64,000 nt of DNA from Nitrospinota bacterium (GCA_016200345.1 JACQEX010000074.1:671-64670), one strand, 5' to 3'. Positions 2,750 to 47,537 are shown, numbered from the stretch's first letter. The notes: generated from the letters alone by a model not told the origin. Translations and numbers: made by a program.

Positions 2750-5700
2750 TTGCAAGGAAGTGACGGCATAATAAAAATGAGCGAAGAAAAAATTAACGAG
2801 GGGCTTTACGACCCTTCTTTCGAGCACGACGCCTGCGGGGTCGGTTTTGTGGCGAATCTGCACTCCAAGAAATCCCATGAAATCGTAAGAAACGGGGTGC
2901 GGATACTGGAGAACCTAGAACACCGGGGCGCGTCTGGCGCCGAGAAAAACTCGGGCGACGGCGCCGGAATTACGATCCAACTGCCGGACGAATTCCTTAG
3001 AATCGAGTGTAAAAAACTGGGTTTCGAATTGCCAGAGCCCGGATTCTACGGCGTTGGCATGTTGTTCCTCCCGAAGGACGACGGCGGGCGGAAAACCGTC
3101 ATGGCCGTTTATCAGAAATGCGTGGAGGAATCGGGCCAGGTGCTTTTGGGCTGGCGGCGCGTTCCGACCGACAACAAGGAGCTTGGCGCCACGGCGGTCA
3201 ATTCAGAGCCTTACGTCGCGCAGGTGTTCGTTAAGCGCGGAAGTAACGCGCCGGACCACGACTCCTTCGAGCGAAAACTCTACGTCATCCATCGCTATGC
3301 AAAGCGGCGTGTGCAGGAGTGCGGCGCCAAGGACTCGGATATGTTCTACACCGTGTCGCTTTCCAGCAAGACAATGACGTACAAGGGGATGCTCACGGCC
3401 ACGCAGTTGTCGGGGTATTTTCCCGACCTTAGCGACCCTTCGCTAAAATCCGCCATCGCCATGGTTCACAGCCGGTTTTCGACCAACGTCATGCCGTCGT
3501 GGCCTTTGGCGCACCCGTTTAAATACATCGCCCACAACGGGGAAATTAACACCCTTCGTGGAAACATAAATTGGATGAGGGCGAGAGAGGCCATTTTTGA
3601 GGCTGACCTTTTCACAAAGGAAGAACTGGATAAAATTCGCCCCGTCATAGACGACAGAAAATCCGACAGCGCGATTTTAGACTCCGTCGTCGAGCTTCTC
3701 GTGATGAACGGCAGAAGCCTGCCGCACGTGATGATGATGCTGGTGCCCGAGGCCTGGGCCCGCGACAAGGAGATGAGCGCCTCGAAAAAGGCTTTTTACG
3801 AATATCACGCCACTCTGATGGAGCCGTGGGACGGCCCCGCCTCCATCGCGTTTACGGACGGGCGCATCATCGGCGCGACGCTTGATAGAAACGGGCTTAG
3901 GCCGTCGCGCTACTGTTTGACAAACGACGGGACGCTTGTGATGAGCTCCGAGGCGGGCGTGCTGGATTTCAAGCCCGAGGACGTCAAGCTAAAGGGAAGG
4001 TTGCAACCGGGACGAATGTTCGTCGCGAGCCTCGACGAAGGGAGAATAATCCCCGACGAGGAGATAAGACAGAGAATAGCCGGTTCACAGCCTTACGAAA
4101 AATGGCTTAAGGAGGGAAAGCTGGAGCTTTCCGATTTGCCGGACGTTAAGTCGCCCCACAGGCACGATTTCGCCACGCTCGTAAAAAGGCAGTCCGCGTT
4201 CGGCTACACGTTCGAGGACTTAAAATTAATCCTTGCGCCCATGGCCGACAACGGCGAGGAGCCTCTGGGCTCCATGGGAAGCGACACTCCGCTTGCCGTG
4301 CTTTCGGACAAGCCGCAACTGCTCTTCAATTATTTTTACCAGCTTTTCGCGCAGGTTACGAACCCGCCCATTGACTCCATCAGGGAGGAGTCGGTCATGT
4401 CGCTGGTCTCCTTCATCGGCTCGCAGGGCCAGATTCTTTCCGAGTCGCACGAGCACTGCCGCGTGGTGGAGATTCCCAACCCGGTACTCTCCAACGACGA
4501 GCTTGAAAAAATAAGGGCAATCAAGCACCCGCTTTTCGGATCCGTGACGATACCCGCGCTGTTCCCGGCGGTTGAAAAGGGGGGTAAAAGCCTGGAGTCC
4601 GCGTTGGATAAAATTTGCGCCCTTGCAAGCTCGGCGGTGGCGGAGGGGAAAAACATAATTATTTTGAGCGACAGAGGCGTTGACGAAAACAACGCCGCCA
4701 TCCCGTCGCTCCTTGCCGTGTCGGCCGTGCACCACCATTTGATACGAGAGGGGACGCGGGCCAAATGCGGGATAATCATAGAAACCGGCGAGGCGAGGGA
4801 GGTGCACCACTTCGCGCTTCTTTTGGGTTTTGGCGCTACGGCCATAAACCCGTACCTTGCTTTTGAGTCAATAGCCGACCTTATTGACAGAAAGTTTCTC
4901 GAGACCGTCGCCTCCGAGGAAAAGGCGAAAAAGAATTTTATCAAGGCCGTGGAAAAGGGGCTTTTGAAGACGATTGCAAAGATGGGCATCTCCACAATTC
5001 AATCGTACATCGGGGCGCAGATATTCGAGGCCGTGGGCCTCGGCGACGGGTTCGTCGAAAAATATTTTACGAAAACGGCCTCGCGAATCGGCGGCGTGGG
5101 CGCGGAGGCCATCGAAAAAGAGGCGTTGATTCGGCACCTCTCCGCGAACCCCGGCGGCAGTCCGATTCAAGACACGGATTTAGAGCCGGGCGGACAATAC
5201 TACTGGAGGGCGCGGGGCGAGAAGCACACGATAAACCCGGAGACCGTGCAACAACTCCAAAACGCCGTGCGAAAAAACGACTTCACGGCGTTCAAGCAGT
5301 TCTCCAAGACCGTCACCGAAACGTCGGGCCTCAACACGCTAAGGGACTTGCTTGAATTCACAAATTTCGCCCCTGTTCCCATCGAGGAGGTGGAGCCCGC
5401 GGAAAAGATAGTGAAACGGTTTTTCACCGGCGCGATGTCGTTTGGCTCCATCAGCAAGGAGGCCCACGAAACAATCGCGATTGCGATGAACCGGCTTGGC
5501 GCAAAAAGCAACACCGGAGAGGGCGGAGAGGATCCCGAAAGGTTCAAAAAACTTCCGAACGGCGATTTTCCGCGTTCGGCAATCAAGCAAGTCGCGTCCG
5601 GCCGGTTCGGTGTGACGTCCAACTATCTTGTCAACGCCGACGAATTGCAAATAAAAATGGCGCAGGGTGCGAAGCCGGGCGAAGGCGGCCAGCTCCCCGG

Positions 5701-7312
5701 CAAGAAAGTGGACAAGACGATAGCCAAAGTAAGGCACTCCACTCCGGGCGTGGGGCTTATATCCCCGCCGCCGCACCACGACATTTATTCAATCGAGGAT
5801 TTGGCACAGCTGATTTTTGACCTTAAGAACGCCAATAATCGAGCGAGGATTAACGTAAAACTCGTCTCCGAGGCTGGCGTAGGCACAATCGCCGCCGGAG
5901 TTGCAAAAGGCCACGCGGAGGCGGTCCTCATTTCGGGGCATGACGGCGGAACGGGAGCCTCGCCCCTAAGCTCGATTAAACACGCCGGTCTCCCATGGGA
6001 GCTTGGCCTTGCCGAGACCCACCAGGTGCTTATGAGGAACGACCTAAGAAGCAGAATTGTGGTGCAGGCCGACGGAAGAATTATAACCGGGCGGGACGTG
6101 ATGATTGCCACACTGCTTGGGGCCGAGGAGTGGGGCGCCGCGACGACCGCGCTTGTCTCCGCCGGTTGCATAATGATGCGAAAGTGCCATTTGAACAACT
6201 GCCCGGTAGGGGTTGCCACACAGGATCCGGATCTTAGGAAGAACTTCATGGGCAAGCCGGAGCACGTCGTAAACTTCTTCATGTTTTTGGCGACGGAGCT
6301 GAGGGAGCACATGGCAAAGCTCGGCTTTAAAACCGTGAACGAGATGGTCGGAAGGACCGACAAGCTAAAGGTCAAGGACAACATTACGCACTACAAGGCG
6401 AGGCACGTGGAGGCCGGTAAACTTTTGACCCAGGCGAAATCAAGCGTCTGCGCACCCTACTGTTGCGAGAGGCAGGATTTCGGGCTTGACGGGGTTTTGG
6501 ACCACCAACTTATCGCGTTGGCGAAACCGGCGTTGGAGTCCGGCAAAAAAGTCGCCGGCGAGTTTAAAATCAGAAACGTCAACCGCGCGGTCGGCTCGAT
6601 GCTTTCCGCCGAAATTTCGCGCAAGTACGGCGAGAACGGACTGCCCGACGACACGATAAAAATTAAGCTTACCGGAACGGCGGGGCAAAGCTTCATGGCG
6701 TTCGGCGCGAAGGGGATGACGTTCGAGCTGGAAGGGGAGGCGAACGATTATTTTTGCAAGGGGCTTTCCGGCGCAAAGGCCGTTCTTTACCCGGACAAAC
6801 GCTCCAAGTACAAGGCGAACGAAAACGTGATACTCGGAAACGTCGCATTCTACGGCGCCACCAGCGGGGTCGCGTTTATTCAGGGAATGGGCGGAGAAAG
6901 ATTCTGCGTTAGAAATTCCGGCGCAAACGTGGTGGTCGAGGCGGTGGGAGACCACGGTTGCGAATACATGACCGGGGGAAGGGTTGTCATACTCGGCCCG
7001 GTGGGCAAAAATTTCGCCGCCGGAATGAGCGGAGGAATAGCGTATATTTTGGATTTGGACGGGGCCTCGCGACCAAGGGTCAACAAAGGCCTCGTAGGGC
7101 TGGAAGGCCTTGTGGACGCGGAGGAGGTTGACTTCGTAAAAGGTTTTATCGAGCAACATTTCAACCACACGAACAGCACGCACGCGAAATGGGTGTTGGA
7201 CAACTGGAGGGACGTTCTCCCCAAGTTTATCAAGGTGATGCCGGAGGATTATAAGAAGGTTCTGGAGGAAACGTCCGCATTGACTAAAAAAGGAGTTGTG
7301 TCGGCGGTTTAA
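2750..7312 (+). CDS. gltB: glutamate synthase large subunit
   Basis: N-terminal amidotransferase motif [14 protein letters not shown] with the nucleophile Cys after the initiator region. 1520 aa with FMN and GXGXG domains. The probable real start is the ATG at 2777 (MSEEKINEG...). Confidence 0.95.
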
Positions 7313-7332: not shown

Positions 7333-8799
7333 ATGGGAAAAATAAACGGCTTCAAGGAATTTAACAGAAAAACCCAGCAGTACCAGCCTGTCGAGCAGAG
7401 AATAAAAAATTATTCCGAGTTCGTGATACAACTCGCCGAAGGAGAGTTGCAAAACCAAGGAGCAAGATGTCTGGAGTGCGGCACTCCGTTTTGCCAGCCC
7501 AACTGCCCGCTTAACAACGTGCCGCCGGATTTTAACGACCTGGTTTTTCGCGGCAAGTGGCGGGAGGCGTTAAAAGTCCTTCTAAGCACGAACAACTTCC
7601 CGGAGTTTACGGGCAGACTCTGTCCGGCGCTGTGCGAGGCCGGTTGCGTGCTTGGTTTGATAGACAAACCGGTCACCATCAAGAACATCGAGCTTTCGAT
7701 AATTGAGCGCGGCTTTAGGGAAGGGTGGATTAAACCCGAGCCTCCCGCGCATAGAACGGGAAAAAAGGTGGCCGTTGTCGGATCCGGCCCGTCGGGTTTG
7801 GCCGTTGCCGCCCAGTTAAACAAAGCCGGACACGAGGTTACGGTTTTCGAGAGGGCGGATAGAATCGGCGGACTGCTAAGATACGGCATACCGGATTTTA
7901 AACTGGACAAAGGCGTCATTGACCGGCGCGTGGCCGTAATGGCCGGGGAAGGGGTCAAGTTCGTTACAAGCGCGGACGTGGGAAACACCGTTTCCGCGAA
8001 AAAGATTAAAAGCGAGTTCGACGCGGTTGTTCTCGCCGCCGGCGCCACCATTCCGCGCGATTTGCCGATACCGGGCCGGGACGCTAAAGGCGTGCACTTC
8101 GCCGTGGAATTTTTAAGGCAAAACAACATGCGCGTCGCCGGCGACGTAATCCCAAAACGGGAGGAGATTCTTGCCACGGGAAAACACGTGCTTGTAATTG
8201 GCGGCGGCGACACCGGCTCGGATTGCGTCGGCACATCCATACGGCAGGGAGCCGCGTCCGTCACGCAAATCGAGCTGTTGGACAAACCTCCGGCCTGGAG
8301 AACCGAGGAGACAAAGTGGCCGACCTTCCCCGGCCCGAAAATGCTTTCCACATCCACCTCGCAAGAGGAGGGATGCACGAGGGAGTGGTCGGTTTTGTCC
8401 AAGGAATTTCTTAAGGATGACAAAGGAAACCTGACCGGAGTAAGACGCGTTCAGTTAAAGTGGATAAACAACGCCAAGTTTGAGGAAGTTCCCGGCTCCG
8501 AGGCCGTGTACAAGGCGGACCTCGCATTTTTAGCGATGGGCTTTCTGCACACCAATCCCAAGGGGGTTGTGGGGGAGCTTGGTTTGCAAATTGACGCACG
8601 GGGAAACGTCCAAACGGACGGCGGATACCAAACGAACGTCCCCGGGGTTTTTGCGGCGGGCGACGCCAGAAGGGGACAGTCCCTCATCGTATGGGCCATA
8701 TCCGAAGGGCGCGAGTGCGCCAGGGCGGTTGACGTTTATCTTTCCGGCTCCACTAGGCTGGAGTCAAAAAACCAAACGCTAAGCGACTCTCTCCGCTAA
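7333..8799 (+). CDS. gltD: glutamate synthase small subunit (NADPH)
   Basis: Two Cys clusters ([24 protein letters not shown]), a FAD/NAD Rossmann motif [15 protein letters not shown], and a 4-nt-scale gap after gltB. Confidence 0.9.
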
Positions 8800-8870: not shown

Positions 8871-8972
8871 GGTGGGTACACCATTCTTGGTGTACCTTGC
8901 CGCGCAAGCGGCAATGATTTTATCGGCCTTGACAGGCCGATGTACACCCTAAAGGGCGTACCCACCGGAAAT
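8871..8972 (+). ncRNA. candidate structured RNA element (family 2, copy 1), unclassified
   Basis: Four consecutive hairpins: ggtacacc-attctt-ggtgtacc; gccgc-GCAA-gcggc (GNRA loop); atcggcc-ttgac-aggccgat; gtacaccc-taaa-gggcgtac; then ccaccggaaat. Compensatory base changes relative to the copy at 43700-43764. Confidence 0.4.
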
Positions 8973-8996: not shown

Positions 8997-10724
8997 TCAC
9001 CCGACGTATCGTTTTACCCTCGGGAGAAAATCGTCCACGACGATCTGTTTTGTAAGAAAATCTTTTGCTCCCAGCCCGTAGACGGTCTCTCGAATCTCCA
9101 TTCCGTGCTTGCCGGATATGATCATGACGGGGATTGATTTTGTGTCGTTCCTATTTTGGAGGTATGCGAGAAGATCCAGCCCGGACATTGTGGGCATCTC
9201 TATGTCGGAAATAATCAGATGCGGCAGGGCCACTTTCCCGGAGAGCATATTGACCGCCTTCGAGCCGTCGTCCGCCTCGGAAACCATCGCGCCGACCTTC
9301 TTTAAGTAATGGCCGACGAGATGGCGGAAATTCTGGTCGTCGTCCACCACCAATATTCGCGGGCGTACGCTTGGGAGCCTCAGGGTAAAGGCGGAGCCTT
9401 TGCCAAGTTCGGATTGAACCTCCATGCCTCCGCCGTGCCAGGCCATGATGTCCTTGGTAAGTTGTAGTCCGATGCCTGCGCCCGCAACCGAGGCGAGCCC
9501 CGCGGACCTTGAATCGTAGTTTATAACGGCGGAAAGTTTTTCTTTTTCCATTCCGGGGCCGTTGTCGGAAACTCTTATGGACGTGTTGTCCCCCTCGTTG
9601 AAGGAGATTACAACCTCATCGCCGCTTTGGCAGTATTTGAGGGCGTTTGTAACGAGGTTTTGCAAAGCCTCGTACAGCAGGATTTTATCGGCATAAATCC
9701 TGCTATTGTGGCGGATTTCATTTACGAGTTTGATGCGCCGATTTTCCGCAACATGACGAAATGCCTCGCAGGCCTTGGCCGAAAGAAGACTCGCGTCGAA
9801 AAACTGTTTTTTCAGCTTCAGCTCGCCGGACCTAAGCCTGCTGAGGTTCAACACGTCGTCAATGAGCCTGCTAAGGGATTTTCCAGACTTGATGGCGCTT
9901 GTAAGAGCGTCGAGCCCGTGTTTTTCAATCGGTTTTTCGGCGTCATTTTCCAATAGCTCCAAAAGGCCTATCATGGAGGCGAGCGGACTTTTTAGGTCGT
10001 GGGCCACGAGGGAGACGAATTTATCCTTCAGCCTTGTCGCCTCCTCGGCCTGCTCCTTTGCCGCGCGAATCGCCTCGTCGGCCTTTTTTCGCTCGGTTAC
10101 GTCGCGCATGCTAAGAACGTACTGGACCTCTCCGCGAAAGATGCATTCCGACACGAAAAGCTCGAAGTCGGTGAATTCGCCCGATTTTTTCAGTCCCTCC
10201 GCCGACACAGCCCTTTCGCGTATCTCGCCCTCCCAGCCGGAAAGAAAAGAGGTATAGCCCTCGACGAGGATTTTGAGATGGTCCTTGGGGATGATGGCGG
10301 AGATGTGTTTTTCCACCAACTCGCTTCCGGCGTAACCCAAAAGGCGGTGGGCCGCGCGGTTGGCCATTTTAATGACGCCTTTAGCGTCAACCCTCATTAT
10401 TCCGTCCGGGGCCGACTCCAACACTGTGTTTACATCGGCCTCCGAGGCGGAAAGCTCGGCCGTGCGCTCCCTGTTTTTGGTTGTTTCTTCCGAAACGCGC
10501 AGATATTGCCGGTGCACCAAAAAATAATAAAGCGGGATTAGGGTCAGGGTCATCGCAAACGCCTCGGCAAAATCGCGCCCCCAAACGGAACCCGAGCCTG
10601 TTTTGAAGGCTACGAACTCGGTGAGTTGGTCCACCGCCATAATGCCGATAAAAAACAAAACGGCGAAAATAAACAGCCGAACCCTTCCACCGGAAAATTT
10701 AGCCACGTTCCAGCTTTCTTTCAT
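8997..10724 (-). CDS. hybrid sensor histidine kinase/response regulator (TM-PAS-HisKA-HATPase-REC)
   Basis: H-box [14 protein letters not shown]-box regions, C-terminal receiver ILVVDDD...ISDIEMP...IISGK. Paralogous to 45546..47537 (same C-terminal PRV(K/R)R(Y/F)VG). Confidence 0.85.
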   Translation of the reverse strand: MKESWNVAKFSGGRVRLFIFAVLFFIGIMAVDQLTEFVAFKTGSGSVWGRDFAEAFAMTLTLIPLYYFLVHRQYLRVSEETTKNRERTAELSASEADVNTVLESAPDGIMRVDAKGVIKMANRAAHRLLGYAGSELVEKHISAIIPKDHLKILVEGYTSFLSGWEGEIRERAVSAEGLKKSGEFTDFELFVSECIFRGEVQYVLSMRDVTERKKADEAIRAAKEQAEEATRLKDKFVSLVAHDLKSPLASMIGLLELLENDAEKPIEKHGLDALTSAIKSGKSLSRLIDDVLNLSRLRSGELKLKKQFFDASLLSAKACEAFRHVAENRRIKLVNEIRHNSRIYADKILLYEALQNLVTNALKYCQSGDEVVISFNEGDNTSIRVSDNGPGMEKEKLSAVINYDSRSAGLASVAGAGIGLQLTKDIMAWHGGGMEVQSELGKGSAFTLRLPSVRPRILVVDDDQNFRHLVGHYLKKVGAMVSEADDGSKAVNMLSGKVALPHLIISDIEMPTMSGLDLLAYLQNRNDTKSIPVMIISGKHGMEIRETVYGLGAKDFLTKQIVVDDFLPRVKRYVG

Positions 10725-10730
10725 CGAAGG

Positions 10731-12170
10731 TTATTTTTCGGCCAGCGCGTTGCTCTTTGAGAACTTTTCCAACGCCTCGGAGGCCTCTTTCATGCCGGGA
10801 TCGAGCCGGAGCGCCGCATGGTACCCCTTCATGGCGGCCGCCGGGTTTCCCACGCTGGAATAAGCCGCCCCAAGGTTGTAGTGGAGCGCCGGGTCGTCCG
10901 GGTCGAGCTTTAGGGCTTTGCTGTAATAGTCGATCGCCTTGTCCGGTTTGTTCAACTGCCGGTAACATATCCCTAGGAAGTTAAATAGGCGGGGGTCCGA
11001 GGGATTTACTCCGACCGCCTTTTCAAACAGCTTTGCCGCGTCCTGCGCCATTCCTTGTCGCATAAAGGCCTCGCCGGCGGTGCAAAGAATTATTTGGTTC
11101 TCCGGATCCACGGCCAGCCCCTTGCCGAGGCAGAATTTCGCCTTGCTCTCCTCGCCGTTCGCCAGGAAAATTTCGAACAGGCTGACCCAGTCCTCCGCAA
11201 GAGTCGGCGTTATGTCCACCGCAAGGGCCATAATTTTCGCCGCCTCGTCGAACTGTCCCATTTTTTTGTAGACCAGTATCAGGTCGTTGTAAGCCGACAT
11301 CAGAAGCGGGTAGATGTTGATGGCCTTTTTAAACTGCTCGCCGGCCATTTGCAGACCGGCTCCGCCGGATTTTTCGTCCTTTCTTTGGGCGTATGCCCTG
11401 CCAAGACCAACGTGCATTCTTGCGTAGGAGCGAATCTCCTCCTCGGGTTTGTATTTGTTTATCGCGTCCATAAAAAACTGCTCGGCGCGTTTAAAATCTC
11501 CGTCCCTTAGAAGCGCCTCGCCGACCTTGAGACAGGTTATAGAGGAATCGGGGTTTTCCCTGTGCATTTCCCAAAGGGCCTCCAACTCCTCGAACGACTT
11601 TCCGGTTTTTTTATAAGCCAGCGCGAGAAGTTTGTGGGCCTCCATGCAATTTGGGTTTAGCGTCACGGTAGTTTTTGCATAGGGGATGACCTCGGAATAT
11701 CTGTTGCACCCGGCGTAAATACGGCTGAGGCTGAGGTAGGGAAGATAATTCCACGGGGCGTATTTTTTGGCCTGCATGATGCGTCCGGCGGAGGTTATAT
11801 AAACGGTCTCCATTTGCGAGGGGAAATGCGATATTTTTTTTCCGCCCGAAAGCGCGGACATGATGGTTTCAATGTCGCTTTTCCGTTTTAAGTCCTCGGC
11901 GGAGACAAGATTGGCGCACACGTCCTCCAATTTTTTCTTCAGGGATTCGGCGGTCAGTTGCTCTTCTAAAAAATAAACGTTCGCAGGGGTGGTTACGTCC
12001 GAAAACTCGGTTGTAATTCCCCAAATAATTACCGGCATCGGAATCGAGGAGATTTTTTCCGCCTTTAGAATCTTGTCCAGTTTTGTGTTGCCGACCCTTC
12101 CGACCTCGTTTTTTGTTATGACAAGATCATAAAAGCCCCCGCCGCGTGTTCTGGAAAAGATTAGCATCAT
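10731..12170 (-). CDS. TPR-repeat protein with degenerate N-terminal receiver-like domain
   Basis: Multiple TPR repeats (…LGxAY…). The N-terminus (YDLVITKNE..IPMPVIIWG) resembles a REC domain lacking the acidic pocket. Paralogous to 44139..45521. Confidence 0.7.
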   Translation of the reverse strand: MMLIFSRTRGGGFYDLVITKNEVGRVGNTKLDKILKAEKISSIPMPVIIWGITTEFSDVTTPANVYFLEEQLTAESLKKKLEDVCANLVSAEDLKRKSDIETIMSALSGGKKISHFPSQMETVYITSAGRIMQAKKYAPWNYLPYLSLSRIYAGCNRYSEVIPYAKTTVTLNPNCMEAHKLLALAYKKTGKSFEELEALWEMHRENPDSSITCLKVGEALLRDGDFKRAEQFFMDAINKYKPEEEIRSYARMHVGLGRAYAQRKDEKSGGAGLQMAGEQFKKAINIYPLLMSAYNDLILVYKKMGQFDEAAKIMALAVDITPTLAEDWVSLFEIFLANGEESKAKFCLGKGLAVDPENQIILCTAGEAFMRQGMAQDAAKLFEKAVGVNPSDPRLFNFLGICYRQLNKPDKAIDYYSKALKLDPDDPALHYNLGAAYSSVGNPAAAMKGYHAALRLDPGMKEASEALEKFSKSNALAEK

Positions 12171-27127: not shown

Positions 27128-27736
27128 ATGATAGTGACAAAGAGACAAAAGGAAATTTTGGATTTCGTAAACGTTTTTAAGGAAAAACGCGGATATGCGC
27201 CGAGCATAAACGAAATTGGCGGCCAGTTTAAAATCAGCTCCCCCGCCACCGTTCACCAGCACCTAAAAAACCTTCAGGAAAAGGGGCTTATAAGGCGGTC
27301 ACCAAGCCGACATCGGTCAATCGAGGTGATTCCTTCGCAAGGGGCGGAACACAACGGAATTTATGTGCCGGTGTTGGGCGAGATTGCCGCCGGGTACCCG
27401 ATAGAGTCGTACGCGGAGCCGGACGTAATGACCATGCCGCGCGAGTTGGGGGCGGACGAGGAGTGCTATCTTTTGAGGGTGCGCGGTGATTCGATGATAG
27501 AGGACCATATTTTGGACGGCGATTTGGTGCTTGTCCGAAAATCAATGACGGCCAAACCGGGCCAGACGATAGTTGCGCTGATAGACGGGCGCGAGGCGAC
27601 GCTGAAAAAATATTTTGTGGAAGGCGGTCGAATCCGCCTGGAGCCGGCCAACTCAACGATGCAACCGCTCTATTTCGAGCCTGTGCGTGTGCGGATACAG
27701 GGCACCGTCGTCGGCGTGATAAGAAAATATTCTTAG
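27128..27736 (+). CDS. lexA: LexA repressor
   Basis: N-terminal winged HTH; S24 peptidase core GDSMIEDHILDGDLVLV with the cleavage-site region. Confidence 0.9.
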   Translation: MIVTKRQKEILDFVNVFKEKRGYAPSINEIGGQFKISSPATVHQHLKNLQEKGLIRRSPSRHRSIEVIPSQGAEHNGIYVPVLGEIAAGYPIESYAEPDVMTMPRELGADEECYLLRVRGDSMIEDHILDGDLVLVRKSMTAKPGQTIVALIDGREATLKKYFVEGGRIRLEPANSTMQPLYFEPVRVRIQGTVVGVIRKYS

Positions 27737-27740
27737 CCAC

Positions 27741-27864
27741 TGGTAGCAACGGGATTCATCCTGTTGTTGCGCCCGTAGGGCGCAAGGCAGGCTAAAGCCC
27801 GCCGCCACCAATTCGTGTTGGTGCATGCACCGCCCGTAAAGGAGGTGCTGGGACACCACACTAG
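27741..27864. repeat. family 1 repeat, copy 2 (A-B in direct order)
   Basis: tggtagcaacgggattcatcctgtt…gcgcccgtagggcgc…gccacca followed by attcgtgttggtgcatgcacc…ctgggacaccacactag. Starts 5 nt after the lexA stop, 75 nt before tRNA-Val. Confidence 0.6.
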
Positions 27865-27938: not shown

Positions 27939-28014
27939 CGGGCGAATAGCTCAGTTGGTAGAGCGCCAGCCTTACAAGCTGGATGCCACAGGTTCGAGCC
28001 CTGTTTCGCCCACC
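27939..28014 (+). tRNA. tRNA-Val (anticodon TAC), CCA encoded
   Basis: GGGCGAA acceptor stem, D-arm TAGCTCAGTTGGTAGAGCG, anticodon stem-loop CCAGC-CTTACAA-GCTGG, T-arm GGTTCGAGCCC, 3' CCA. A TATAAT box lies about 20 nt upstream. Confidence 0.85.
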
Positions 28015-28318
28015 AAATAAACAAAACAATCCCTCCGGGCATTGTTTTGTTTATTTCATCGGTTTGCGACAGGGCTCGAAAGCAAACTCCCGGAGCGAGC
28101 CGGCGAGCTCAAACGGACAGGACGTCCGTTTAGGGAGTTTGTCGGGCCTGATGGAGCAACAACAGGATGTTGTTGCGAGAGCAGGCGACCCTGTTTCGCC
28201 CACCAAATAAACAAAACAATCCCTCCGGGCATTGTTTTGTTTATTTCGTCGGTTTGCGACAGGGCTCGAAAGCAAACTCCCGGAGCGAGCCGGCGAGCTC
28301 AAACGGACAGGACGTCCG
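27998..28318 (+). repeat. two 131-nt direct repeats (27998-28128 and 28188-28318, 1 mismatch) separated by 59 nt
   Basis: Each unit comprises the last 17 nt of tRNA-Val (ccctgtttcgcccacca), the terminator hairpin, and ~70 nt downstream. The second unit carries only the tRNA 3' fragment. Confidence 0.8.
28015..28056 (+). terminator. rho-independent terminator after tRNA-Val
   Basis: aaacaaaacaatccctccgggcattgttttgttt hairpin followed by a T-rich tail. An identical copy lies at about 28205-28246. Confidence 0.6.
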
Positions 28319-28404
28319 TCCCGGCCTCTGACACAAGATTTAATACATCACCGACGATGCTGACCAATTTGACTATTTCTATCGGGGCGCATATCATTTT
28401 CTTT

Positions 28405-40138: not shown

Positions 40139-40891
40139 TTACGCGCCCCCTTTAAGGTAGATTACCGAGGGATCCAAGCCGTGCTCCTCGAGCAGGCGAT
40201 GGCGGCGTTTGCTCTTGGAAAGCTCCGCCACCTTGCTTTCGGGGTCGTCCAGATAGCCAAAGGTTATCGCCTTTGTCGGGCACGACTGGGCGCAGGCCGA
40301 AACAACCTCGCCGTCTTTGACCCCCCTCCCCTCGTCCTTGGCCTTGTCTTTGCCGCGTCGAATTCTTTGCATACAGAAGGTGCATTTTTCCATGACTCCG
40401 ACTTCACGAATTGAAACGTCGGGGTTTAACTGTTGCTCAAGCGGAGCCTCCCACTTGGAATTGAACCAGTTGAATTTTCTAACTCCGTACGGACAGTTGT
40501 TGGCGCAGAACCTAACGCCCATGCATCGGTTGTAGACCATGGCGTTCAACCCGTCCGGATTGTGGTAGGTGGCAAAAACCGGGCAGACCGGTTCGCACGG
40601 CGCCTTGCCGCACTGCTGGCACGGCATGGGCAAAAACACCACCCTAAGCTCGGGCCACTCCCCCTCGAAATACCGCTCGACCCTAAGCCACGACATGGTC
40701 CGTTTTTCGCGGGCCATTTTTTCGCCAACGACCGCTATGTTGTTCTCGGCCTGACAGGCGATGGTGCACGCGCCGCACCCGTTGCATTTGTCCAGGTCAA
40801 TGACCATGGCCCACTTATGATATTCGGTGTTAGAGTTGAAAGACTTCACCTTCGTAATCTCCTTTGGGGTTGCCTTCCCTAATAATTTCAA
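40139..40891 (-). CDS. actB: alternative complex III FeS subunit (ActB2; four-cluster ferredoxin)
   Basis: Multiple CxxCxxCxxxCP motifs (CNGCGACTIACQAEN…). Start ambiguous (40891 or the ATG at about 40810, MVIDLDKC…). Confidence 0.8.
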   Translation of the reverse strand: MKLLGKATPKEITKVKSFNSNTEYHKWAMVIDLDKCNGCGACTIACQAENNIAVVGEKMAREKRTMSWLRVERYFEGEWPELRVVFLPMPCQQCGKAPCEPVCPVFATYHNPDGLNAMVYNRCMGVRFCANNCPYGVRKFNWFNSKWEAPLEQQLNPDVSIREVGVMEKCTFCMQRIRRGKDKAKDEGRGVKDGEVVSACAQSCPTKAITFGYLDDPESKVAELSKSKRRHRLLEEHGLDPSVIYLKGGA

Positions 40892-42988: not shown

Positions 42989-43549
42989 TCATGTGTGGCA
43001 CGTCCAGCAGTCGGTGGAGACCTTCCGCTCTTGGTGGCAATCCAGGCAAAATCCCATTCTGAAAATCTGGTTTTGCGCGTTAATTTCCATAGTCTCCACG
43101 GCCCCGTGGCATTTTTTGCACTCAATTTCCTTGGCGATGTGCCGTTTGTGGTTGAACCAGACGTGGTCGGGCAGGTTGTAAACCCTAATCCAGTTGCCCA
43201 TGTTTTGGGCGTCGTACGCCTTTTGAATCTCCTTGATGGAGGGTTTGTCTATGGTCAGGTTTTGGTGGCAGTTCATGCATTTTGAGAACGGCGGGACCCC
43301 GGCGAACTCCGCCTTCCGCGCGTAAATGTGGCAATACTGACAGTTAATGCCGAGGTCGCCCGCATGAAGTTTGTGGGAGTAGGTGAACGGTTGTTTCGGC
43401 GCGAATTTGCCGGGGGTAAAAATCGGGGCGTGATAGAAATATCCGCCGAATATTATTAGCCCCACAACGGCCGCGACGCCGATTGTCGCAAACGCCTTCG
43501 CGACGCCGGAGCGCGGCGTTAGTCGTGAACCCACACTTTCGTTTTCCAA
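42989..43549 (-). CDS. actA: alternative complex III pentaheme cytochrome c subunit ActA
   Basis: Five CxxCH motifs (CQYCH, CMNCH, CKKCH, CLDCH, CWTCH), an N-terminal TM anchor, and a TTG start with GAGGT RBS. Confidence 0.8.
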   Translation of the reverse strand: MENESVGSRLTPRSGVAKAFATIGVAAVVGLIIFGGYFYHAPIFTPGKFAPKQPFTYSHKLHAGDLGINCQYCHIYARKAEFAGVPPFSKCMNCHQNLTIDKPSIKEIQKAYDAQNMGNWIRVYNLPDHVWFNHKRHIAKEIECKKCHGAVETMEINAQNQIFRMGFCLDCHQERKVSTDCWTCHT

Positions 43550-43615: not shown

Positions 43616-43699
43616 TAAGATTATGTTAATTTGTCGTTTCTTTGGGTTGTTTTAAGGGGGGCGGGCAGTGGGCTCGGTAGGTACGGGCTTTAGTACTTT

Positions 43700-43764
43700 G
43701 CCGCGCAAGCGGCGTCGGCCTTTCCAAGCCGACGTACACACTAAAGTGTGTACCCACCGGAAAT
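43700..43764 (+). ncRNA. candidate structured RNA element (family 2, copy 2)
   Basis: gccgc-GCAA-gcggc; gtcggc-ctttccaa-gccgac; gtacacac-taaa-gtgtgtac; ccaccggaaat. Same order and spacing as 8899-8972. Confidence 0.4.
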
Positions 43765-43967
43765 TGTAATGCGGAATGAGAGGAAAATAATTTGGAAAAT
43801 ATTTTACCGGACACACCTTTTGGCATTGAATTTAGCCTTTCCAGGCCGACGTACACACTAAAGTGTGTACCCACCGGAAATTGTAATGCGGAATGAGAGG
43901 AAAATAATTTGGAAAATATTTTACCGGACACACCTTTTGGCATTGAATTTAGCCTTTCCAGGCCGAC
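43719..43967. repeat. 117-bp tandem direct repeat, about 2.1 copies
   Basis: The unit cctttcca(a/g)gccgacgtacacactaaagtgtgtacccaccggaaattgtaatgcgg…gcattgaatttag repeats at 43719, 43836 and 43953 (partial). It generates the spurious ORF 43626..43973(-) with repeated peptide. Confidence 0.85.
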
Positions 43968-44138
43968 TCTCACAACAAAGACGTTGCAGTTTATTTTTCG
44001 GCAAGCGTTTGTAATATACCGGCCCTAAGCGGGCCGCACGAAATAATCGCCGACACAAAGTCAGACGGCCTTGTAGCCGCCGTCATCACGGGCCATCCTA
44101 ATGGCGCGAATATTGACCTTGTCATCGCCGACGACCAG

Positions 44139-45521
44139 ATGGACTCCGCAAACAATGAGCTTCGCTGGTCGCGCATTCTTTTGGAGCGCGGATTGGAACC
44201 CAACGTGCCGTTCGTCCTATTTTCCGGCAGATTTGACGAAAAGCTAAAAATTGAGGGGGTTTTCCCGGAAAGCGTCATCCTACTGGAACCACCCTTCACC
44301 ATCGAGAATTTGACAAAAACAATGGCGTTTAAAATTACAGCGGCCATCGCGCGGGAAGAGGCGGGCCGTTCCGCCGCAATAGAGTGGCTTGTGCACGCCA
44401 ACACGACCACCGACATTTCCACGGCGATTGACGACCTATACATGAGTTCGGCGCGCCGCCTTAACAAATATCGCCAATACGCCCCTTGGTTTTCGTCGCC
44501 TCATATCGCGCTGGGAAAAGTGTACGCCGGGTGCAACAGGCACAAGGAGGCCGTTCCGCATCTAAAAACGGCCCTGTCGCTGGACTTTAACAGGCAGGAC
44601 GCGCATCGCCTGCTCGCGCTGTGCTACAGGCGGACCGGACAGGCGTTTGACGAGCTGTCGGAGCTAAGGAAAATGCTGGAGGCTGACCCCGCCTCGTCCG
44701 ATTTGTTGTTGCGAATCGGGGAGGCGGATCTGCGCGAGGACAATTATGAGTCGGCTATGGCGCATTTCAAAAAGGCCATAGAGAATTTCAAGCCGTCGGA
44801 AAAACCGCGCAGGAAGGCCAAGGCCCACGTCGGACTCGGAAGGGCGTTTTTTATAAAGGGGGAGCAAACGGACGTCGCGTCGAACTTTGGAACGGCGAAG
44901 ACAGAATTCCAATCAGCCGTGGACGCCGACCCCACGCTTATCGCGGCGTACAACAATCTCATTTTGACGTACCGCAAACTGGGAATGTTCGCCGAGGCAA
45001 AAAAGGCGGTTGAGCGGGCGATAACCGTCACGCCCACGGAGGCAGAGGACTGGGCCGAGCTTTTCGAGATATACCTCGCCGACGGCGACGCTGGAAAGGC
45101 CCGGTACGCCCTGCAGAAGGCGGTAAAGTTGGATCCGGAAAACCAGCGCATACTTTGCTCGGCCGGGGCGGCCTACATCAGGCAGGGAATGTTCCGGGAG
45201 GCCGTCGTCCAATTTGAAACCGCGCTCGGTGCAAACCCGTCGGACATCCACATCTACAACAACCTGGGGATATGCCACCGCAGACTTCTGGAACTCGACA
45301 CGGCGATAAAGTATTATCTTACCGCCCTAAAAATCGAGCCGGACGACAAGAACATCCATTTCAACCTCGGCAAGGCCTACCTCCAAAACAACGAAAGGGA
45401 AAAGGCCTTCCGCAGTTTTAACAAGTCGCTCGCCATAGACCCGGCCTTTATGGAGGCTCGTAAAGTTCTCAAGGGAATCAAGAATTACGACGCCGCCGAC
45501 CAACGGGGCGCGGCGCGGTAA
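44139..45521 (+). CDS. TPR-repeat protein, paralog of 10731..12170
   Basis: …YAPWFSSPHIALGKVYAGCNRHKEAVPHLKTALSLD… aligns with …YAPWNYLPYLSLSRIYAGCNRYSEVIPYAKTTVTLN… of the first copy. TPR repeats throughout. Confidence 0.7.
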   Translation: MDSANNELRWSRILLERGLEPNVPFVLFSGRFDEKLKIEGVFPESVILLEPPFTIENLTKTMAFKITAAIAREEAGRSAAIEWLVHANTTTDISTAIDDLYMSSARRLNKYRQYAPWFSSPHIALGKVYAGCNRHKEAVPHLKTALSLDFNRQDAHRLLALCYRRTGQAFDELSELRKMLEADPASSDLLLRIGEADLREDNYESAMAHFKKAIENFKPSEKPRRKAKAHVGLGRAFFIKGEQTDVASNFGTAKTEFQSAVDADPTLIAAYNNLILTYRKLGMFAEAKKAVERAITVTPTEAEDWAELFEIYLADGDAGKARYALQKAVKLDPENQRILCSAGAAYIRQGMFREAVVQFETALGANPSDIHIYNNLGICHRRLLELDTAIKYYLTALKIEPDDKNIHFNLGKAYLQNNEREKAFRSFNKSLAIDPAFMEARKVLKGIKNYDAADQRGAAR

Positions 45522-45545: not shown

Positions 45546-47537
45546 ATGACGGACGCGTTTATCCTTGCCATCGCCATCCTGCCGCTTTTATACTTTTTCA
45601 TGTACCGTCGCTTTTCGGAAAGCGTAAAAGGTCTGAAAAAGCTCTCCGCCGCCCTCGAACAACGGGTGCTGGAAAGAACCGCCCAACTTGAATTCTCCGA
45701 GGCGGTACACCGTTTGGTCCTAGCCTCGTCCTCGGACGCCATCTTGCGGACAAGCGCGGACGGCGAAATCCTAATGGCCAATCCCGCCGCGTATTGGATG
45801 TTCGGCTACACCAAGGCCGAGCTTGAGAGAGGGAACATATCCCTGTTTCTTCCGGGAGGCTTTGAAAAGGTGCTTGTGGACGGGTACGCGAGAACCCTCG
45901 ACGGGTGGAACGGACACCACTCGGCGCCGTTTGTCCAGGCGGAGGCGGTGACGAAATCCGGCAAAAAGCTCGTGGTGGAATGCTCCGCCTCCGAGTGCCT
46001 CGTGAATTCGGAAGTATCGTTTGTAATAGTGATGCGCGACGCGACGGAGCGGAAAAAGGCGGAGGAGGAAAAGAACATCTCCGAAGAGCGCCTTCTCACA
46101 CTCATCCACGCCATGACGGACGTCGTCTACTTCAAGGACGGCGAAGGGAGATGGTTGGTGGTGAACGAGTCTGGGCTCAAATTGTTCGGCCTTGAAAACA
46201 TCAACTATCGCGGAAAGCGCGATTCGGAACTCCTCCCTCCAACCGACTTCCACTACCCGGCGCTCTGTTACTGCGAACAGACCGACAAAAAAGCGTGGGA
46301 GGCGGACGGCCCCACCCGCGTTATGGAAAAGATTCCACGGCCTGACGGCTCCCTGCGGCAGTTCGACGTCATCAAGGTGCCTCTTTACCACGAAAACGGC
46401 GAGAGGCGCGGGCTGGTTATCTTCGGGCGGGACGTGACCGACCGGGTGAAGTGGGAGGAGGAGTTGAAATCGGCAAAGGAGGCGGCCGAGTCTGCGACCA
46501 GGCTGAAGGACAAATTTATATCACTGGTGGCGCACGACCTTAAATCCCCGCTGGGAACGATGATTGGTTTTATCGGGCTTGCAGGAGGCGAGACCGGGAC
46601 GCAACCAAACGACGCCACAAAAAGATTGTTGGACATGGCGATGGAATCCGGAACGCGGATGGTCGGTCTCATAGACGAGCTGTTGAAGATAAGCAGGTTT
46701 CAAACGGGCCAGTTGAAACTGGAACGGCGGTTTTTCGACGCAAAATCTTTGGGAGACAAAATGATGGCCGATTATTCCAACTTTGCCCGACAAAAGGGGG
46801 TAGGGATGGAGAACGCGATACCAGAAAACAGCCGTGTTTACGGGGACATTGTTCTTTTGACGGAGGCGATTCAAAATCTCGTCACCAACGCCATAAAATT
46901 TTGCAAAAGCGGCGACCGCATAACCATCTTCTCACCGGAAAAAGGCTCGACCACCATCTGCGTTAAAGACAGCGGCCCCGGCATGAAGCCGGAGGTGCTG
47001 GACAAGGTTTTCAAATTCGAGGAAAAGACGTCGACGCCCGGAACCGACGGCGAGGTCGGCACCGGTTTCGGACTTCCGCTGGTCAAAAACATCATGGAGT
47101 TTCACGGGGGGACCATTCACGCGAGTTGCGAACCGGGCGAGGGATGTGTTTTCAGCATGGAACTTCCCAACGTCCGCCCCGTAATCCTTCTCGTTGATGA
47201 CGACAGGAACTTTAGGCTTCTTCAAATACAGCAACTGAAAGACGTGGACGCAAACGTAATGGAGGCGGAAAACGGAGTGGCGGCGCTTGACATGATTTCT
47301 ACCCGCCGTCCGCATTTGGTCATCGCCGACGTCAAAATGCCCATCATGGACGGGCTTGAACTTTTAAAACGATTGAAAGGCGGGGCCGACACAAAAGATA
47401 TCCCCGTAATTATAATCAGCGGCGAATACGACATGGAGAGCCGGGATAAGGTCTTCAAAATGGGCGCGGATGATTTCGTGACCAAGAATATGGATCCTGT
47501 TGACTTCATCCCCAGAGTGAGAAGGTTCGTCGGATAA
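45546..47537 (+). CDS. hybrid sensor histidine kinase/response regulator (2xPAS-HisKA-HATPase-REC), paralog of 8997..10724
   Basis: H-box [13 protein letters not shown]; receiver VILLVDDD…IADVKMP…IIISGE; identical C-terminal …PRVRRFVG. Confidence 0.85.
   Translation: MTDAFILAIAILPLLYFFMYRRFSESVKGLKKLSAALEQRVLERTAQLEFSEAVHRLVLASSSDAILRTSADGEILMANPAAYWMFGYTKAELERGNISLFLPGGFEKVLVDGYARTLDGWNGHHSAPFVQAEAVTKSGKKLVVECSASECLVNSEVSFVIVMRDATERKKAEEEKNISEERLLTLIHAMTDVVYFKDGEGRWLVVNESGLKLFGLENINYRGKRDSELLPPTDFHYPALCYCEQTDKKAWEADGPTRVMEKIPRPDGSLRQFDVIKVPLYHENGERRGLVIFGRDVTDRVKWEEELKSAKEAAESATRLKDKFISLVAHDLKSPLGTMIGFIGLAGGETGTQPNDATKRLLDMAMESGTRMVGLIDELLKISRFQTGQLKLERRFFDAKSLGDKMMADYSNFARQKGVGMENAIPENSRVYGDIVLLTEAIQNLVTNAIKFCKSGDRITIFSPEKGSTTICVKDSGPGMKPEVLDKVFKFEEKTSTPGTDGEVGTGFGLPLVKNIMEFHGGTIHASCEPGEGCVFSMELPNVRPVILLVDDDRNFRLLQIQQLKDVDANVMEAENGVAALDMISTRRPHLVIADVKMPIMDGLELLKRLKGGADTKDIPVIIISGEYDMESRDKVFKMGADDFVTKNMDPVDFIPRVRRFVG

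Follow-up and report, generated by a model that had tools for sequence, protein, structure and literature searches.

The window analysed here, a 64-kb stretch of Nitrospinota DNA, carries a short palindromic element at two loci, each beside a pair of genes for a TPR protein and a hybrid kinase. At locus 1, copy 1 occupies the convergent spacer between a gltD-like gene (7333-8799, +) and a PAS hybrid kinase gene (8997-10724, -), 71 nt past the stop codon of the former and 30 nt past that of the latter; the TPR gene of this cassette follows at 10731-12170 (-). The genes around copy 2, at locus 2, diverge: on one side, 127 nt away, is a multihaem cytochrome c gene (42989-43549, -), and on the other a TPR gene (44139-45521, +), with the kinase gene (45546-47537, +) located 3' of the latter. 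This gene context had been described correctly in the initial annotation, which took the two copies for a new structured element linked to the cassette of TPR and kinase genes. The features are listed in Table 1.

Table 1. Coordinates of the repeat copies, their parts and associated features in the window, and of the putative transposase gene at locus L033 of the related MAG nzgw266 (R1, covariance model built from 16 copies)
Feature	Position	Strand	Basis
Copy 1, full REP doublet (REPIN)	8871-8966	+	read directly; R1 covariance model; fold
Copy 1, left tag GGTGG	8871-8875	+	read directly
Copy 1, hairpin A, GTACACC-ATTCTT-GGTGTAC	8876-8895	+	read directly
Copy 1, hairpin B (core GCCGC-GCAA-GCGGC, 8899-8912)	8897-8914	+	read directly
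Copy 1, spacer between hairpins B and C	8915-8921	+	
Copy 1, hairpin C, (A/G)TCGGCC-loop-(G/A)GCCGA(T/C)	8922-8941	+	read directly
Copy 1, hairpin D, GTACACNC-TAAA-GNGNGTAC	8942-8961	+	read directly
Copy 1, right tag CCACC	8962-8966	+	read directly
Copy 1, purine-rich tail GGAAAT, 3' of right tag	8967-8972	+	read directly
Copy 2, REP doublet	43676-43758	+	read directly; R1 model; fold
Copy 2, left tag GGTAG	43676-43680	+	
Copy 2, degenerate hairpin A	43681-43696	+	
Copy 2, hairpin B, GCCGC-GCAA-GCGGC	43700-43713	+	
Copy 2, hairpin C	43714-43733	+	
Copy 2, hairpin D, GTACACNC-TAAA-GNGNGTAC	43734-43753	+	
Copy 2, right tag CCACC (tail GGAAAT to 43764)	43754-43758	+	
117-nt tandem duplication, 2.1 copies, 99% identical	43718-43967	+	TRF score 493; repeat search
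Third, partial copy from duplication (half C 43835-43850, D 43851-43870, CCACC 43871-43875, then tail)	43835-43881	+	
16-nt fragment of hairpin C, from duplication	43952-43967	+	
5' coding remnant of TPR gene, conserved	43968-44138	+	tblastn of P0002, P0003 N-termini
Second REPIN-like subfamily, copy a: TGGTAGC, three hairpins, GCTACCA	2624-2693 (R1 match 2625-2692)		repeat search, R1
Second REPIN-like subfamily, copy b	27741-27810 (R1 match 27742-27809)		repeat search, R1
Putative RAYT, 177 aa	L033:5007-5540	-	NCBIfam, Pfam, PDB 4ER8 matches

The hairpin series had been read accurately in the initial annotation: its order is shared by both loci, and the tail CCACCGGAAAT is identical between copies 1 and 2. 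The last six nucleotides, GGAAAT, are the same in all three window copies, and the tail is loosely conserved in relatives (GGGAAAG, GGGGAAG, AGGAAAT). The right halves of copies 1 and 2 share 86% DNA identity over 50 nt (BLAST E = 4e-11). The closing pair of hairpin C, hairpin 2 of the initial annotation, goes from A-T to G-C; hairpin D has A-T in place of C-G at one pair, and where copy 1 has an A.C mismatch, copy 2 has an A-T pair. Copy 2 had been started at 43700 and actually begins at 43676 with a left GGTAG tag and a hairpin A. Likewise, the three hairpins named are present, but a fourth one at the left end and the closure of the element by GGT(G/A)G...CCACC had been missed, and the two loci are not the only occurrences, since a partial copy, a further fragment and a second subfamily are also found in the window.

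An alignment (99 columns) of 16 full-length copies, taken from the window's assembly and four others, defined the element as a quasi-palindrome of about 90 nt in which GGT(G/A)G is followed by the hairpins A-B-C-D and CCACC. Across these copies the consensus of hairpin A is GTAC-N12-13-GTAC; that of hairpin B is either TTGGCGC-N3-4-GCGCCAA or GCCGC-GCAA-GCGGC, followed by a variable spacer; that of hairpin C is TCGGCC(C)-N4-6-(G)GGCCGA; and that of hairpin D is GTAC-N12-GTAC, after which CCACC follows. The compensatory changes noticed between copies 1 and 2 are genuine and extend to all 16 copies, in which 93.7% of the cells pair and 11 pairs have changed on both sides. Neither this degree of pairing nor the covariation was matched by any of 500 shuffles, and in slid controls pairing fell to 30-42%. 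In the 20-nt hairpins A and D, 89.8% and 96.9% of the cells pair, with five and four pairs changed on both sides, respectively; these stems are free in their inner four pairs (CCAA/TTGG, ACAC/GTGT, AGAC/GTCC, ATGC/GCAT and others), and G-U pairs are tolerated at a few positions. The local-hairpin model is thus supported family-wide. A long pairing of A against D is possible in some copies only. Aligned with the right half in reverse complement, the left half shows 62-74% identity in 14 of the 16 copies (69% in copy 1) and 51% and 61% in the others, and these values exceed shuffled scores in nearly every copy. The left tag reads GGTGG in eight copies, GGTAG in six and GGCGG in two; the right tag CCACC was fixed by the search pattern, so that the independent evidence for a tag comes from the left end alone. 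Singleton C-D modules and solo D hairpins were found as well, the C-D half-elements amplifying on their own.

A covariance model built from the 16 copies (R1) gave 84.8 bits for copy 1 on the + strand and 74.8 bits on the - strand, and 57.8 and 44.5 bits for copy 2; both strands score alike in the window and in relatives. With strands so nearly equal, the initial argument from GNRA and UAAA loops in the + orientation only carries little weight. The fold of copy 1 deviates from dinucleotide shuffles by z = -8.1 as RNA, -7.8 as DNA and -9.0 on the minus strand, and its minimum free energy form is a single long structure closed by the pairing of GGTGGGTAC (8871-8879) with GTACCCACC (8958-8966). 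Copy 2 (z = -5.0) forms a single long structure only as RNA. No known RNA family had been recognised initially, and this was confirmed by an Rfam scan of the window at gathering thresholds, which returned one tRNA only; the best relaxed match in the two loci reached 16.4 bits against a threshold of 46.7.

The element proved to be dispersed. The pattern GCCGAYGTAC-N12-GTACCCACC, derived from six modules, was scanned against the GTDB species representatives and matched 22 times on 16 contigs of the Nitrospinales MAG nzgw266, three times in nzgw267 and twice in WY2.bin26. Eleven matches in other taxa had no hairpin complementarity, and about 9-17 are expected by chance from the pattern and the size of the collection. 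In nzgw266, 49 tagged hairpin units were counted in 136 kb of loci. Among JGI metagenomes the same pattern was found on 11 contigs, all from sample Ga0315281 and all with the subtype of the window (B stem GCCGC.., D stem ACCC/GGGT or ATCC/GGAT); on six contigs no more than about 180 nt separates the match from an end of the contig, which is expected because repeats break assemblies. Two Logan contigs of the window's own locus (L002, L003) break off within copy 1, at position 8946 of the window, and the short-read contigs L070, L071, L072, L082, L083 and L088 end in or beside the element. A search of viral contigs with the 15-mer GTACCCACCGGAAAT yielded 21 matches, none with an upstream GTAC hairpin and thus chance matches. 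Further copies, with covariation, were recovered with R1 in 243 kb of related loci, where 111 rows at E <= 1 correspond to about 54 non-overlapping places. Tandem arrays occur at L033 (four copies at 5551-5950 and two at 4789-5002), L044 (three) and L040 (three). At L029 (GCA_016217735.1) one element with a tandemly doubled C-D module lies between the TPR and kinase genes and a second one 29 nt past the kinase stop codon; the stems differ in sequence there yet stay complementary.

The insertion sites are largely intergenic. All five R1 matches in the window are extragenic, and overall 46 of the 59 matches listed fall between called ORFs (at least 150 aa), as a rule at a distance of 5-75 nt from the end of a gene; where the other 13 lie inside greedily called ORFs, these ORFs look spurious or over-extended. 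About 12 loci have tandem gene contexts, seven convergent and three divergent ones, and among the tandem ones seven have the element in the direction of the genes and five have it reversed. The neighbouring genes are mutually unrelated and encode SurA, LptD, IlvD, a DegT aminotransferase, a SpoU methylase, glycosyltransferases, a Band 7 protein, a porin, PhzF, MCPs, a PAS-GGDEF-EAL protein and one hybrid kinase. The idea of a novel structured element tied to the cassette is not supported, given 22 matches on 16 contigs of nzgw266 beside unrelated neighbours, and the occurrence of both orientations, the tandem arrays and the flanking of a transposase gene count against such a tie as well.

That gene, at L033 in nzgw266, encodes a putative REP-associated tyrosine transposase (RAYT) and is flanked by six copies of the element, four on one side and two on the other. 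RAYTs are HUH/Y1 single-strand DNA nucleases. The protein matched the NCBIfam model NF047646 'REP-associated tyrosine transposase' (E = 2e-22, 79.6 bits, cut-off 80), Pfam Y1_Tnp (PF01797; E = 3e-4, 21.3 bits, cut-off 23) and the E. coli TnpA-REP structure PDB 4ER8 (E = 1.5e-5); scores just under the curated cut-offs speak against a REP/RAYT reading. In the alignment to 4ER8 its HIH motif falls on H59-M60-H61, and a tyrosine and an asparagine fall on the catalytic residues Y115 and N119. The regular expression Y...NP[VLI].A.G found no match, the L033 protein having N-A-V-R-A-G instead of N-P. Homologues of 48-55% identity are encoded in other Nitrospinae MAGs and metagenomes, and two distant ones (34-41% identity) bear the JGI name 'REP element-mobilizing transposase RayT'. 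Those at L067, L068 and L090 adjoin R1 matches; at L067 copies lie on both sides of the gene, with the GGTAGGTAC head kept and the stems changed. Around another homologue, L091, no R1 match was obtained at E <= 0.01. By tblastn the RAYT gene is absent from the 64-kb window, which also counts against the REP/RAYT reading, and L033 was the sole match among the window and related loci. Extrapolating from the relatives, we infer that the window's own genome contains a RAYT gene and many copies.

GTAG-type REPs are defined by a tag and a palindrome, with GTRG and GTGG as recognised variants, and diverged units with outward tags around a spacer with small stem-loops are head-to-head heterodimers with a structured spacer (PMC3733652); the same arrangement was named REPIN by Bertels and Rainey (2011; PMC3116915). 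Each half of the Nitrospinales element consists of a GT(G/A)G tag and a palindrome and thus fits this definition. The units are 20-nt palindromes with a GTAG-like tag at the foot and are located extragenically, as in REPs, and two inverted units with a short spacer are able to form one hairpin, as in REPINs. The hairpins are therefore explained as terminal inverted repeats of a known kind of repeat, a GT(A/G)G-tagged REP doublet. We consider it highly probable (about 0.9) that the elements are REPINs, a non-autonomous mobile repeat of Nitrospinales with a RAYT as presumed mobiliser, and not a cassette-specific RNA. Systems of REP/REPIN and RAYT are already known, and this family is a further member; a literature search (REP and Nitrospina) found no paper describing REPs or REPINs in Nitrospinota. 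The window holds the two loci with the partial copy and two copies of the second subfamily, and many copies are dispersed in relatives.

Each REP unit comprises the GT(G/A)G tag, the 20-nt palindrome GTAC-N12-GTAC and a short GC-rich palindrome, and two diverged units placed head-to-head give the quasi-palindrome. In single-stranded form, DNA or RNA, it can fold into four local hairpins closed by GGTGG/CCACC or into one long hairpin. In E. coli, TnpA-REP cleaves single-stranded DNA and shows base-specific binding to the REP hairpin and its 5' GTAG tag (PMC3479197). By analogy, the Nitrospinales RAYT may act in the same way, recognising the hairpin and the GT(A/G)G tag and cutting and rejoining single-stranded DNA, and may thereby mobilise the elements. 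The compensatory changes would reflect hairpins needed by the enzyme, possibly with effects at the RNA level too, and the adjacency to cassettes would result from settlement in permissive intergenic spacers, not from a cassette-specific function.

The closest known counterparts are the GTAG REP heterodimers (Di Nocera et al. 2013; PMC3733652), which likewise have a GT(A/G)G tag at the foot of the palindrome, diverged inverted units with tags outward, stem-loops in the spacer and compensatory stem changes, are extragenic and mostly situated after genes, and flank a RAYT gene. The Nitrospinales element differs from them by its family-specific GTAC-N12-GTAC stems, by a GTGG tag as frequent as GTAG and by a second GC-rich palindrome per half, resulting in four hairpins per doublet. 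It is likened to REPINs by its doublet architecture, the host phylum here being Nitrospinota. With the BIMEs and the REPtron of E. coli (Messing et al. 2012; PMC3479197) it shares two REP types in alternating orientation, tandem clusters, and a Y1/HUH gene that is flanked by REP clusters and aligns in the HUH motif and the catalytic Tyr and Asn. The Nitrospinales RAYT is nevertheless distant from TnpA-REP, E. coli His123 aligning with Ala, and the E. coli REP sequences are unrelated to the Nitrospinales element. A third likeness is to the NIMEs and Correia elements of Neisseria, which form intergenic mosaics of several short repeat modules; in Nitrospinales the element stands beside GTCATTC...GAATC-type and GCTTTGAAAATAT modules. 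The TA target duplication and the 26-bp terminal repeats of Correia elements were not seen in the Nitrospinales element. To our knowledge, NIMEs and Correia elements do not depend on a RAYT.

A second pair of repeats in the window, 70 nt long, 94% identical and GTAG-tagged on either side, appears to form a second subfamily of shorter REPINs. R1 scored the first copy with 31-32 bits and the second with 35-37 bits on both strands, and the first has a DNA fold of z = -4.5. The first lies 57 nt upstream of a 1520-aa ORF (2750-7312; presumably the large subunit of glutamate synthase), the second 5 nt past a lexA-like gene (27128-27736) and 130 nt upstream of tRNA-Val. A tRNA-like nature of these repeats was ruled out, as ARAGORN and Rfam made no call and R1 places them in the repeat family. 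Hairpins of the type AAC(A/G)G(A/G)ATTCAT(C/T)CTGTT, resembling those of the second subfamily, occur at L025 (11612-11704) and L065 (632-724). The spacer after the lexA-like gene, which holds the three-hairpin copy in the window, contains a full four-hairpin copy in nzgw266 (L043, 1370-1461, gene at 647-1294) and a C-D module with other mosaic modules in nzgw267 (L065, gene at about 800-1425), and the TPR-kinase spacer of L025 holds a diverged, second-subfamily-like copy. Permissive spacers thus appear to be re-used, which suggests long-lived hot spots with subfamily turnover. The accompanying modules comprise GTCATTCTGAGCG..GAAGAATC, GTCATTCCCGCG..CGGGGATCCAGA / GTCATGCCGGGC..CCCGGCA and GCTTTGA(A/T)AATAT; they are located at L029 (11560-11800), L043 (1310-1345, 1460-1520) and L065 (1440-1470, 1600-1660) and form BIME- or NIME-like intergenic mosaics with the elements.

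Two further observations concern the tRNA annotation of the window. A 131-nt direct repeat (27999-28129 and 28189-28319; 99% identical, 190 nt apart), the first copy of which overlaps the 3' end of tRNA-Val (27940-28015), may have arisen by duplication of an attachment site or by local tandem duplication. A tRNA-Ala with anticodon AGC called by ARAGORN at 40578-40653 (-), for which the Rfam tRNA model made no call, is probably a false positive because it lies inside the ORFs of a molybdopterin oxidoreductase operon.

The copies might alternatively serve the host mainly as a punctuation signal: they could end transcripts from either direction by a hairpin, terminate or stabilise mRNAs, or bind a nucleoid protein, and their repetition would then arise because such a signal is needed by many operons. 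The mostly tandem or convergent contexts, typically 5-75 nt from a stop codon, agree with this, and REPs have been reported in such contexts near stop codons (PMC3733652). At locus 1, hairpin B followed by TGATTTTAT (8897-8924) has a terminator-like score on the + strand downstream of the gltD-like gene. The T-run, however, is confined to copy 1, such a spacer being absent from copy 2, the relatives and the Ga0315281 copies; three loci, window copy 2 included, are divergent and hence on the promoter side, and the arrays of three to four copies and the flanked transposase gene are left unexplained. We regard this explanation of the family as unlikely; a punctuation role is compatible with a REP ancestry through exaptation.

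The relation to the cassettes deserves separate consideration. The paralogues of the two cassettes share only 40% (TPR) and 39% (kinase) protein identity, and the orientation of the element does not follow the inverted cassette. A co-duplication of element and cassette was ruled out by these orientations and by the contrast of 39-40% protein identity with 86% DNA identity of the elements, which are thus younger than the cassette duplication and arrived independently. A TPR-kinase cassette without the element exists at L030. In the cassette-centred loci of three genomes, all five family matches border the TPR or kinase genes (two in the window, two at L029, one at L025), which is not predicted by pure random settlement and argues against it. 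Co-option of REPIN copies as boundary elements of TPR and PAS hybrid kinase cassettes in this Nitrospinales lineage would explain this bordering, as well as the loss of the TPR start codon exactly at a repeat junction. We consider such a co-option improbable, more so than a general punctuation role; if it did take place, the copies could end or process transcripts through their hairpins, or serve as recombination sites at which signalling genes are shuffled and truncated.

Even less probable is a structured RNA with a cis-regulatory role specific to these cassettes, whether as a leader, as a 3' UTR element or as a small RNA. Such an RNA would account for the elements at the cassette borders in the window (twice), at L029 (two sites) and, weakly, at L025, and for compensatory changes and the few tolerated G-U pairs. 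Most copies, however, stand beside unrelated genes and in mixed orientation (seven co-oriented versus five anti-oriented, with copy 1 antisense to the kinase gene); the strands score almost equally, the loop of hairpin B is not consistently GNRA across copies, and Rfam gives no match. Together with the tandem arrays, the flanked RAYT gene and the cassette at L030 that lacks the element, the dispersal largely refutes this reading. Least credible of all is a classical MITE, derived by deletion from a DDE-type IS and bearing terminal inverted repeats and target-site duplications: the elements are short, non-coding, multicopy and intergenic and end in inverted repeats (GGTGGGTAC...GTACCCACC), but the flanks of about 30 copies, read by eye, show no target-site duplication, the units have a REP-like GT(A/G)G tag and palindrome, the C-D half-elements amplify alone, and the sole transposase found adjoining copies, at four loci, is an HUH/Y1 RAYT.

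The REPINs may have local consequences for their neighbours. At locus 1, copy 1 may act as a 3' hairpin or terminator for the gltD-like gene and the kinase gene, and at locus 2 the repeat may have brought about rearrangement and truncation of the TPR gene. The 117-nt tandem duplication at locus 2 is seeded on the 3' part of hairpin C of copy 2 and gave rise to the third, partial copy (R1 partial match 43779-43875) and the hairpin C fragment; the unit includes a weak promoter-like site, TTGTAA-16-AATAAT. In tblastn searches with two TPR orthologs (P0002 and P0003), residues 7-129 matched window positions 43968-44336 with 56-57% identity (E = 3e-50 and 8e-50), the homology beginning directly after the last repeat fragment. 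Thus 57 conserved codons precede the annotated start, and this upstream part contains no ATG, GTG or TTG. The TPR protein of locus 2 has 460 aa compared to 524 aa in its orthologs, to which it is about 70% identical in other MAGs, and the genes upstream of the orthologs differ from those in the window. The TPR gene therefore appears to be 5'-truncated. As its homology starts at the repeat edge without a start codon, we infer from the sequence that the repeat marks a rearrangement which removed the first codons of the gene.

The analysis removes a false lead, as the element is not a new riboregulator of a two-component cassette. REPs can mislead scans for RNA motifs because the compensatory changes in their hairpins mimic RNA covariation. 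Most work on REPs and RAYTs concerns Gammaproteobacteria, and the present family adds a REP/REPIN-RAYT system for Nitrospinota, with a doublet of unusual four-hairpin form. In this group a given spacer, such as the one after lexA or the one separating the TPR gene from the kinase gene, harbours different subfamilies from one genome to another. The repeats break metagenome assemblies, with contigs ending inside them, and they mark points of rearrangement, such as that of the apparently shortened TPR gene.
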